Shown here in pieces: positions 3,001-6,000 of a DNA stretch of 13,718 nt. Every line of letters starts with the position of its first letter. Positions within the stretch are counted from its first letter, which is position 1. The stretch comes from a virus. The stretch lies in UHGV virus genome UHGV-0343652. One strand, 5' to 3'. The position numbers were made by a program.

Positions 3001-6000
3001 AAATCGGGAAAATCTGGCCGCAAGCGCGGTCGTCCTGAAATTAGTTATTTGCTGAATGAGCTACAGCTTGACTATCTGTTACGCGTTATCCGTGGGCGTG
3101 ACGCAGAACGTATCAACCAGTTCAAGCTGGATGTTACGAAGGCATTCGCGAAGCATCGCGCCGCTGAACCAGTCCGTCGCGAATATCTGCCAGGCTATCA
3201 CGAAAGCCGTGACGGGCTTAAAGCACTGGGCGCAGAACGTCACCATTACATCAACCTTGCCCGCACTGAAAATCGCTTCGCTGGGCTGGCTGTAGGCGAG
3301 CGTCAGAGCGCGGGAGAGCAACAGTTAGGCTTACTGATAGTCATGCAGAAAATCGAGCAGGCAGCATTTAACGAGGCGATACAGAACGGCATGACACCGA
3401 CCGAAGCGGTGCGGGAAGTTGCTCGCCGCATGGAGACGTTCGCCAGCCTGATGACGTCAGCGCCGTCTCTGGGGGTGAATCATGCGTAATTATGATTTCG
3501 CCGCAATTATTCCGGTATCACCTGGCATTATTGGCAGATATGAAACGGGCGTTGTCAGCGCACGCGCACTGCATAAAGCGCTCGGTGTAGGCCGTGATTT
3601 CACCACCTGGATCAAAGGGCGTATTGAGGAGTACGGATTTAAAAAAGGTGTGGATTTTGAGGTTGTAGAAAATTTGTACTTTGATTCCCCGAAACGGGGG
3701 AGCCAAAGTGTAAATATTGAACAGTTTGATTCTGGCTGGCACGTCGCCTGGGAGAACGTGAACATGCCTGACATCCGCAACGCTGCCGCCCTGTACATCG
3801 ATACTGCGGATAAGTTCGCACAGGTGAGCATCAACCATGCTGATTACATGCGCCATATCGTGAGCCATTTCGCCGCTGAGCGCATGAAACACGTTAAGCA
3901 ATACTTGGGGGAGGTTTTATCAAATTATCGCGCTGGTGGCCCTGTACGGCGCGAATATCCGCATGATGCAGGAATGGCAGGCAAAACAAAGGCGACCACG
4001 AAAGGGTCGCCAGTGGAGATAAAGGAAATCAAGCGCATCACCAACTATGCCATGAGTGTAGCTGGTGGACAATGCTATCAGCCAGGCGGTCGGTTTTTAG
4101 TGGCTTTTAACCGCCGTGGGTATTTCTCGACAAAAGCCTCAAGGGCAAATCGTGTTGGCCTGGTGAGTGGCAGTGGATTAAGTAACAACCTCCTTTGCCG
4201 TTGTGCTTTTTCGCGCTGTCGCTCAAGTATGGATAATGCGATTTCCTGTAGTTCTTCATTTGTCATTGTCTGTACCCGTAAAGCGGTGCGCTGTAGTACC
4301 TCATATCACAGCGCAGGTATTTTTTATGGTTGTAATTTGCGTGATGATTCAGGTTGCTTTGCGACACACTGCATAAACATAAATAACGTGATGTTATTAT
4401 GTGCTTTCAAAGAAAACGCAGGTATTTTTCGCACAAACTTTTCTCGCAACACATCCGACCACTTAAGCAAAAAAGCGGCATATACTGAGGTTATCCCTTA
4501 TAAAACGGGGATCGGGCGTAGGAACCCGTTTAACTGTAAGGCGATAAATGACGCCAGAAGCGTCTTTTTTTCTGCCAGCGCTTTACGCCATATCAATGGC
4601 GTTGTGTATTGTGCGTACTCGTGCACCATCCAGTCATTTCACGAGTTGCATTTTGCACAGCGCCACCAGCAAACAATGGTGATGCTGGCGGGGCTACCGA
4701 AAGGTAGGCCGGAGTCCTTACAGTCCGGTATTCCTACCCCCGCCAGTGTCACCGCCCATTGTGAGCGTAGGAACTCCTGCGGTGACGTTATTCATCACTG
4801 TAAGGAGGCTGCCAACATGGCTACTACCCCTACCCTCGTACATTCTCAGACTGCCTTTATCTGGCGCTTTATCATCTTTGGCGCGTCAGAATCCCAAATC
4901 ATCCACGTAACCGCCTGGACGGAACGCGAAGCGCGTAACCGTTGCCCGTCAGGTTGCGTTGCTGTATTCGCCGCCCGTATCCGTCAGGAGGCATCACATG
5001 GATAAAAACATGTTGATCGCCTCTTCTTTCGGGCTGTATGATGCCGGAGTCGCCCACATGGCGACCGGGTTTAGCAGCCTGAATCAGATAGCGGACAGCC
5101 GCTTACATTCCGATATGCGGTTTTTTTGTGTCCGTAAGCCTACCCATACCCGCATTATGGCGGGGCGTAACGGGGGAGCCTTTGCGCTCGCTGGTTCCTA
5201 TCTGGCCAGTCTGCTAACCCCGTTACGTCTCGCCACCATGTTTAGCAGCGTAGTAGCGAGACTCCTTAATCAACAGATAGGAGCCTTTCACATGGCTGTA
5301 TCCGCACGCCCTTACTTTGTCTGGCGCTTTATGCAGTGCCTGACAGGCAGCATTGCAATATTCACCGTTACCGCTGCAACTGAGCGCGAAGCACGCGCCC
5401 GGCTGCCGCACGCACATCTGATTTTTGTCGCCCGAATCCGTCAGGAGGTGACTCATGCTTAAAACCTTCCGCGTCTTTTCCCGTGCTGTTAACAAGCGTG
5501 GCTATACCGTTGGCATCACGCAGAACGTGAAGGCCGAAAACGTCCAGGCCGCAATCAGCACAGTAATTAACAAATCAGCTAAAGCCGGTTTATCCGGCGT
5601 AATTATCCACGCAGTGACATGTATTCAGGATGAGGAGTAATTCATGTGTGATTTTTCCGATATGACTGTTGATGAAGCAGCAAAAAGCGCAATGCAGGCA
5701 GAACTTATTTGTTCTCTGATGATGGGTAACACAGGTGAAATGACTGAGGGTGAGATTGAGTCATTGCTCGCCCTGATTAAGCAGCTTACAGGTAAGGCTG
5801 GTAGCTGGCTGATTGCGGCATCGGGTGATGATGCAATATGCGTCAATGACTGAATCCTTTGTTGTTCTGAATATCATGAAATTAAGGGGGTGCAGTAATG
5901 CAGGAAATAACACTGGCAGAAGCCTCGCTACAGGCGCAGCAGGTAGAAGTAATCAGCCGCATGATTGAGCGCATGATTGAACGTAACCACGAAGAAATTG

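Follow-up and report, generated by a model that had tools for sequence, protein, structure and literature searches.

The viral genome UHGV-0343652, studied here as a window of 13,718 nucleotides (nt; the whole stretch of DNA that was analysed), raises the question of what kind of immunity region lies between its AntA-like gene and its replication gene. The window is a phage-satellite island of the gram-negative phage-inducible chromosomal island (PICI) type, with an integrase, AlpA, a Rha/AntA 'Bro' zone, a primase and SSB. An original prediction, made from the sequence alone, had seen in this region two successive modules, each with a terminator-like hairpin, a structured leader and a small gene, in a layout recalling the RNA-controlled termination region of P4. 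We find it highly probable that positions 4480-5462 are a two-tier stack of IsrK(seqA)-C4(CI)-Icd(Kil) antisense-RNA immunity cassettes, placed in the early operon of the island. Each tier consists of a promoter region, an a1/b1 leader ending in a T7 terminator, a Y-shaped C4 gene, an a2/b2 leader and an Icd/Kil-like open reading frame (ORF) (Table 1). The likeness to P4 is, by sequence comparison, one of true homology, indicated by Rfam, blastn and NCBIfam alike, with the P4 elements matching the same models; by this homology the functional steps (C4 excision, repression, termination and bypass) would be shared as well.

Two C4-type antisense RNA cassettes in series

Chance matches are excluded by the scores, the E-values being 2.6e-12 and 5.8e-13 for the two C4 genes (Rfam RF01695, threshold 45 bits), 2e-8 and 1e-4 for the two isrK leaders (RF01394, 50 bits), and 2e-16 and 1e-13 for the two Icd-like proteins (NCBIfam NF033153, cut-off 25 bits). 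The same Rfam models find their known counterparts in P4 (isrK, 60.8 bits at the seqA leader; C4, 74.9 bits at CI) and in P7 (c4-a1b1, 55.5 bits; C4, 69.6 bits, coinciding with the annotated c4 RNA). For both C4 genes the minimum-energy fold is a Y-shape equal to the family structure, with -49.3 kcal/mol and z = -5.9 for C4-1, and -47.4 kcal/mol and z = -5.5 for C4-2. What had been described as a structured leader is instead a predicted antisense RNA gene acting in trans, and not a leader in cis. Of the nested hairpin proposed at 4709-4745, the inner part CCGGA...TCCGG (4709-4728) is real and forms hairpin 2 of C4-1, whereas the outer GGTAGG/CCTACC helix was rejected: in both the Rfam and the minimum-energy folds the partner of GGUAG is CUACC at 4694-4698, and CCUAC at 4733-4737 stays unpaired as the a' element. 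The strong hairpin with its T7 run at 4550-4571 was found again, both in the sequence and by the terminator scan; the weaker terminator placed at about 5097-5127 has its T7 run and a weak hairpin, but it was not flagged by the scan and appears only in the Rfam isrK alignment.

Table 1. Position of the cassette elements, reading frames and neighbouring genes in the window
Feature	Position	Strand	Remarks
Module 1 (P4-CI type)			
Candidate -10 TATACT of module-1 promoter	4481-4486	+	Read from sequence; 7 nt before isrK1 start
IsrK/seqA-like leader 1	4493-4571	+	Rfam isrK 50.0 bits at 4493-4570, exactly at threshold
a1 GTAGGAA	4518-4524	+	In hairpin loop; complementarity
b1 ACTGTAAGG	4533-4541	+	Complementarity
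Intrinsic terminator 1	4550-4571	+	Hairpin GACGC-CAGAA-GCGTC 4550-4564, T7 4565-4571; terminator scan
C4/CI antisense RNA gene 1 (C4-1)	4672-4759	+	Rfam C4 70.3 bits, model positions 1-87
b' UCCUUACAGU	4715-4724	+	In 12-nt loop of C4-1 hairpin 2
a' UUCCUAC	4731-4737	+	Single-stranded junction of C4-1
Target leader 1	4760-4816	+	
a2 GTAGGAA	4767-4773	+	In loop of hairpin 4748-4755/4779-4786
b2 ACTGTAAGGA	4797-4806	+	Overlaps Shine-Dalgarno (SD) sequence AAGGAGG 4802-4808; icd1 ATG 4817
icd1, 62 amino acids, Icd/Kil-like	4817-5005	+	NF033153 59.8 bits; SD AAGGAGG; ends ...ARIRQEASHG
Module 2 (P1/P7-c4 type)			
Module-2 promoter TTGATC-18-TATGAT	5013-5042	+	Aligns with P1/P7 immI TTGACC-17-TATAGT
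IsrK/a1b1-like leader 2	5049-5127	+	About 80% identity to P1/P7 leader; complementarity
a1 TTAGCAG	5071-5077	+	
b1 CAGATAG	5085-5091	+	
T7 run of leader 2	5121-5127	+	After weak hairpin
C4 antisense RNA gene 2 (C4-2)	5153-5240	+	Rfam C4 72.9 bits, model positions 1-87
b' UCCUAUCUG	5196-5204	+	In 12-nt loop of C4-2 hairpin 2
a' CUGCUAA	5211-5217	+	Single-stranded junction of C4-2
Target leader 2	5241-5291	+	
a2 TTAGCAG	5242-5248	+	In loop of hairpin 5227-5233/5256-5262
b2 CAGATAGGA	5274-5282	+	Overlaps SD (GGAG inside); icd2 ATG 5292
icd2, 56 amino acids, Icd/Kil-like	5292-5462	+	NF033153 51.2 bits; SD GGAG; ends ...ARIRQEVTHA
Long reading frames and neighbouring genes			
Eta-like long ORF, 507 codons	3482-5005	+	AntA-type N-terminus, open non-protein-like stretch, Phage_ASH match, icd1 as C-terminus
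Second long ORF, 154 codons	4998-5462	+	Through IsrK2 and C4-2, ends as icd2; annotated by PGAP
61-amino-acid ORF (phrog_3672)	5455-5640	+	Predicted translational coupling to icd2 by ATGCTTAA overlap; first gene of run to primase
Integrase gene	101-1453		
AlpA-type regulator gene	2487-2702		
Rha-like gene	2770-3489		
AntA-type ORF start	3482		
P4-family/D5_N primase gene	6277-8100		
SSB and PerC-type protein genes	Downstream of primase		

The two modules resemble different known systems. Module 1 matches the P4 immunity region (PLE, seqA, CI RNA, seqC, kil nested in eta, then timm) in the arrangement of its parts and in their Rfam families, with about 70% identity over CI and its leader (69.8% by blastn for 4674-4835 against the P4 'cI' region), and in both elements the RNA genes lie within a long in-frame ORF. 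The two differ in their codes (UUCUCAC and UCCUGUGAA in P4), in the AntA-type start of the long ORF here (507 versus about 197 codons), in the presence of a second cassette before the downstream genes, and in the replication protein, which is of the D5_N/primase-C type and not a full P4 alpha. Module 2 follows the immI locus of P1 and P7 (promoter-a1 b1-c4-a2 b2-icd-ant1/2), with about 80% identity from the promoter to a2/b2 (78.6-80.3% by blastn for 5061-5250 against P1, P7 and relatives), an identical a' CUGCUAA, a b2 that overlaps the ribosome-binding site of icd, and an icd that is translationally coupled to the next ORF. In contrast to P1 immI, no ant gene lies downstream: icd1 is followed by the second cassette, icd2 by ORFs of 61, 69 and 67 amino acids and then the primase gene, and the sole AntA-type domain is upstream.

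Both exposed segments of each C4, b' in the loop and a' at the junction, have exact complements of 7-10 nt on both sides, at conserved distances, and the codes of the two modules are unrelated. We collected 93 C4 matches, 31 of them distinct in sequence, from IMG/VR loci, P4, P1 and P7. Across the distinct C4s, a'/a1/a2 and b'/b1/b2 covary three ways at fixed distances, with at least nine a' and at least 15 b' variants. In an alignment that was fitted to the Rfam model, 96.8% of the cells of the C4 helices are paired, both sides have changed in 16 of the 27 pairs, and none of 500 shuffles was as good.

An extra hairpin is formed by the 3' strand of the C4 basal stem with a downstream segment, leaving a2 in the loop, and it covaries across modules (GCUAUCGCC/GGCGAUAGC in P4, GUCACCGC/GCGGUGAC in module 1, GUCUCGC/GCGAGAC in module 2). 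In module 1 this is the hairpin GTCACCGC/GCGGTGAC already noticed in the original prediction, which lies at 4748-4755/4779-4786; its module-2 counterpart GTCTCGC/GCGAGAC is at 5227-5233/5256-5262 and also covaries across relatives. The hairpin can form only before C4 excision. In addition, a1/a2 of module 1 could pair with GGUUCCUA, the 5' portion of the b' loop in C4-2; we treated this cross-match as chance because it is absent in other stacks and an 8-mer match is not improbable.

P1 and P7 differ from each other in b' only, a difference that Citron and Schuster are said to have identified in 1990 as the basis of their hetero-immunity. The b' of module 2 (UCCUAUCUG) differs from that of P1 and P7 alike (UCGUAAGU and UCACAAUC), in the same way as these differ from each other, and we therefore infer that module 2 has a separate specificity. 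A phage or plasmid with the exact code of C4-1 or C4-2, which could be a cross-immunity partner, was searched for and none was found: the best plasmid match to C4-2 and its leader has 87% identity and the best P1-like plasmid 81.6%, and the best phage match to C4-1 and its leader has 73.5%. Target pairs with the same codes (TTAGCAG..CAGATAGGA and GTAGGAA..ACTGTAAGGA) in viral contigs were mostly on environmental contigs, and were taken, unopened, as chance matches.

Reading frames through the RNA genes

The two small proteins share 48% identity, and both align with P7 Icd and P4 Kil; Kil corresponds to the last 65 codons of what was formerly called the 'cI' ORF. Differences among their homologues fall mainly at third codon positions (28 versus 9 and 11 sites for icd1, 30 versus 14 and 18 sites for icd2), so that icd1 and icd2 are real coding sequences, in agreement with the earlier description of two SD-led coding paralogs. 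Icd of P1 binds FtsZ and inhibits cell division (PMC11897509), a precedent that comes from P1 only. It had also been proposed that the codons for RQE double as the SD of the next gene, and CAGGAGG is indeed found at 4985-4991 and 5442-5448, each time 6 nt before an ATG (4998 and 5455).

The modules do lie between the AntA and replication genes, but this region is not simply intergenic, since the AntA-type ORF continues in frame to the icd1 stop. The ATG of this Eta-like ORF overlaps the stop of the Rha-like gene (ATGCGTAA), and the same 8-nt ATGnnnTAA arrangement is found at all three predicted couplings (3482-3489, from the Rha-like gene into the long ORF, 4998-5005 and 5455-5462). The icd1 frame is open for 446 codons upstream, with 10-11 stops in each of the other frames, and the icd2 frame is open back to the stop at 4956-4958, its first ATG (4998) overlapping the icd1 stop. 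Dinucleotide shuffles rarely stay open (0/3000 for 3741-4816, 2e-4 for 4270-4816 and 0.02 for 5006-5291). From the IsrK element to the icd ATG, 45 of the 49 distinct modules have no in-frame stop, with up to 11 stops in the other two frames. Three of the four exceptions are phage-borne, namely P1, P7 and a 55-kb contig (L045), with 3-7 in-frame stops each, and the fourth is a satellite module (L023) with two; in this respect the window is unlike P1 and P7, where the icd frame is closed through the RNA gene. The distance from the C4 start to the ATG is 139, 142 or 145 nt according to module type, so that the differences are multiples of three. The distinct specificity alleles contain 46 stop triplets, of which 45 fall outside the icd frame (P about 2e-7).

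Some further observations concern the same track. The spacer between the IsrK1 terminator and C4-1 is about 100 nt long (4572-4671), as in P4, and contains a second hairpin (4585-4602); in two related first-tier modules (L002 and L008) it is only about 25 nt, and the frame is open in long and short spacers alike. Icd-like ORFs that lack a C4, and distant Icd relatives, also end long open frames of 160-440 codons (L107, 2446-3177; L278, upstream of 5393; L040-L050), which in L107 and L278 cross a real repressor gene in the antisense direction. Such an open track may be a general feature of these islands.

It is conceivable that the long ORFs are real multi-domain proteins of the Bro/Ash type and the RNA-family matches are by-products of coding, but we regard this as improbable. 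The 507 open codons, the AntA and Phage_ASH Pfam matches, and the match of phrog_29966 (188 amino acids) to icd1 as its C-terminal segment would all suit a protein. However, compensatory changes in the helices alter the encoded residues, the specificity sites covary three ways, the differences between IsrK1 and the L002 segment are spread 6:6:6 over codon positions with 17 of the 18 changing the residue, and the translation, rich in Cys, does not resemble a protein. As for Phage_ASH (PF10554), the profile comparison that had been suggested for the small proteins led elsewhere, since the match covers amino acids 334-455 of the long ORF, that is nt 4481-4846, the translated IsrK1/C4-1 region. 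P4 eta gives the same match (P4 locus L004, 1248-1835), and the product of the P4 'cI/ash' ORF is known to be RNA. In related annotations, phrog_1743 and phrog_6196 ('transcriptional repressor') match Icd-like ORFs, and PGAP places 'ash family' pseudogenes and a 154-amino-acid 'Icd-like' CDS over the RNA genes; the 'Ash' and repressor labels were apparently inherited from the early assignment of the P4 'cI/ash' ORF. Translation of the open track and RNA function are not mutually exclusive.

Several findings weigh against a functional two-tier stack with a translated bypass. The module-1 promoter is reduced to a -10-like hexamer without a convincing -35, was not called by the promoter scan and aligns poorly with P4 PLE. 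The IsrK2 leader scores 35.4 bits with isrK, below threshold, its terminator hairpin is weak, and both c4-a1b1 matches are below the Rfam thresholds (31.2 bits for IsrK2). The last icd is internally deleted in two related islands (L002 and L278), and thus decay of some stacks is possible. In its middle part (3741-4492) the long ORF has no codon-position bias against its sole close relative (3:3:3 in 3741-4077), in a comparison of 15 substitutions that is underpowered, and the PGAP annotation treats the AntA and 'ash' portions as incomplete, for which reasons translation of the bypass is something that we infer.

The incomplete CDSs, the deleted icd of the related islands and the missing -35 could also be read as signs that the whole region is a decaying, non-functional immunity remnant. 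This we consider unlikely, because the window retains intact copies of the two C4 genes, the two icd ORFs, the two coupling ATGs, the two long frames and every one of the eight target sites, and the design is kept in many genomes with diversified, matched codes.

Stacked tiers in related islands

The original prediction spoke of a duplicated module, and a recent local tandem duplication would have left two redundant modules of the same specificity. The icd 3' ends and a few blocks do repeat at about 457-460 nt, and the Icd proteins share blocks, yet the Icd proteins are only 48% identical, the a'/b' segments and their targets differ completely, and the P1-type cassette is found behind unrelated first tiers, including protein-repressor ones. 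As cassette 1 is P4-CI-like and cassette 2 P1/P7-c4-like, we read the arrangement as the stacking of two cassette lineages; local duplication has little likelihood. A purely cis-acting pair of attenuators is very improbable: each ORF is preceded by a terminator-like hairpin and T run, but the C4-family matches are full-length and the exposed segments are duplicated as flanking targets, which is the signature of the trans-acting P1/P4 systems.

The recurrence of such stacks was assessed in IMG/VR contigs and E. coli genomes, a scan of genome contigs for Icd relatives having given two loci. In satellites, the P1-type cassette is preceded by another icd about 290 nt upstream in 27 of the 28 evaluable loci; before this upstream icd a P4-type C4 is found in 8 loci, and no C4 is detectable in 19. 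Conversely, 9 of the 37 loci with a P4-type C4 have a second tier. Many Icd-like genes (L088-L130) have no upstream C4 by our own model, nor was any found in a subset rechecked at the Rfam gathering thresholds. In the C4-less loci that were opened (L107, L011 and L278), a small protein gene runs divergently instead, and the promoter contains operator-like repeats. In the window, a minus-strand ORF of 62 amino acids (4078-4266) without a family match overlaps the long plus-strand ORF and is followed by a good terminator-like minus-strand hairpin (3991-4011); related islands have a divergent small regulator gene at this place (YlcI-type, phrog_949/6522). Upstream of module 1 there is also a perfect 13-nt direct repeat, CGCAGGTATTTTT, in AT-rich sequence (4312-4324 and 4417-4429, 105 nt apart), which may be a protein-binding site.

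The second island of E. coli STEC2018-553 (L278; NZ_CP075665.1, 2560288-2572426), located at a tRNA-Gly gene, has three tiers at 4780-6220. Its first tier consists of a YlcI-type protein gene and an icd; in its second, an icd goes with a P1-type C4 whose b' is CCAAUUU; and its third has a C4 100% identical to C4-2 of the window followed by an internally deleted icd, as in L002. The integrase is different and the replication protein is of the DUF927 type. Arrays of two or three tiers were seen in all, the first tier being sometimes a protein-repressor module. At every tier boundary the junction (icd 3' end, ATGGATAAAAAC and promoter) is identical, and thus the stacks were probably built by recombination there.

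What a further tier contributes is the least certain part of our reading. Transcripts from the distal promoter face the distal C4 gate only, so that an upstream tier would add little repression in cis, and we suggest that it may mainly add a second trans-acting C4 specificity, widening immunity against rival elements. Tentatively, and with more doubt than confidence, it may be proposed that satellites build heterospecific IsrK-C4-Icd arrays by icd-3'/promoter recombination as an immunity repertoire, in which the C4 of each tier would act in trans to silence rival satellites or phages with the corresponding code, a shared distal tier would couple co-resident islands, and an in-frame bypass, maintained by selection through all tiers, would let one upstream signal open all locks.

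Earlier publications cover the cassette as a single unit, the families to which its parts belong, the bypass of P4, and the occurrence of CI/seqA homologues in Bro genes of PICIs. In particular, Bro-network genes of gram-negative PICIs carry C4 and isrK Rfam matches, and the P4 eta/kil model was invoked for them (PMC10111431). These PICIs share with the window the zone order of integration, Bro and replication, and we found in that paper no mention of two or three serial cassettes, of distinct codes or of frame conservation in P1-type cassettes. Neither serial cassettes, nor their distinct codes, nor frame conservation through P1-type satellite cassettes were described in the literature searched, which is weak evidence as the older P4/P1 papers were beyond reach.

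Proposed regulation, island context and significance

In the quiescent state, each promoter would produce a short IsrK-like RNA and some read-through transcript, from which C4 would be cut and accumulate, by homology with P4 and P1. C4 would then pair with a2/b2, of which b2 covers the ribosome-binding site, and icd translation would be blocked; the untranslated RNA would be terminated by Rho inside icd, leaving the replication genes off. The first ~90 nt of icd1 are C-rich and G-poor (C/G up to 2.2), and the stretch with C>G at 4804-4907 is, as far as composition goes, consistent with a Rho entry site; the P4 timm fragment (X51522, 8365-8209) maps inside kil. The short IsrK-like RNA would carry decoy or activator copies of the targets.

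In Gifsy-1, the short IsrK activates in trans the translation of a downstream ORF (PMC4825925). The Gifsy-1 locus isrK-STnc1160-orf45-anrP and the window have in common, on the window's side by prediction, a short terminated IsrK with read-through, a processed stable RNA and a small ORF coupled onward (PMC4825925). The output of Gifsy-1 is an antirepressor and then AntQ, whereas the cassette of the window leads to a second cassette and then to replication genes, a Q-type gene lying about 7 kb downstream.

Upon induction, transcription from upstream would bring ribosomes by way of the coupled Rha-like gene and ORF 3482-5005; these would re-initiate at ATG 4998 and translate through both RNA genes into the replication genes, so that through-translation would override both terminators and both antisense blocks. 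The bypass is suggested by the conserved open frame and the precedent of P4 eta/kil. In P4, Kil is the short form; the full-length product, Eta, is made only from a late promoter lying upstream, by coupling to the alpA homologue, and translation of eta prevents termination (Forti et al. 1999, via PMC10111431). In the window no late promoter was identified.

Elsewhere in the island, a ProQ/FinO-family RNA-binding protein is encoded at 9058-9525 (Pfam, 86 bits), beside SSB and PerC. ProQ/FinO-family proteins are chaperones of antisense RNA pairing on plasmids, and a functional link with the C4 system is conceivable. The Q-type antitermination protein gene (12175-12573; Pfam, 170 bits) recalls the IsrK-AnrP-AntQ cascade of Gifsy-1. 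Between the primase gene and SSB (8100-8350) there are at least 10 copies of GGTGAACA(G/C) in both orientations, which resemble replication-origin iterons of the island; weak Rfam microRNA-family matches there are artefacts of the inverted repeats. The int-alpA RNA motif (RF02996) was not detected in the window and is present in some related islands (L094, 1098-1164; L007, 78-146). No psu, sid or delta gene was identified among the scanned ORFs of the window, several of which had no family match.

The closest match to the flagged stretch is E. coli STEC2018-553 (99.9% identity), in which the island adjoins yicC. Part of the region is matched by 917 E. coli complete-genome records, 17 of which match at least 80% of it; C4-1 with its leader occurs in 16 E. 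coli genomes, and C4-2 with its leader in 140.

P4 and P1 provide the classic example of RNA-based immunity, which has been studied as a single cassette. If the reading proposed here is true, satellites stack cassettes with different codes, which diversify combinatorially even as the icd frame remains open across the RNA genes, and there is a hint of how a single upstream signal could override several RNA locks. It would also provide a concrete and testable model of hetero-immunity and competition among phage satellites. For genome annotation, it would follow that the 'Ash family protein', several PHROG 'transcriptional repressor' labels and the long 'Icd-like' CDSs of PGAP are translations of RNA genes or misnomers derived from them. 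The host context is that of Shiga-toxin-producing E. coli, which are rich in prophages, and cross-talk between such elements could affect prophage behaviour.

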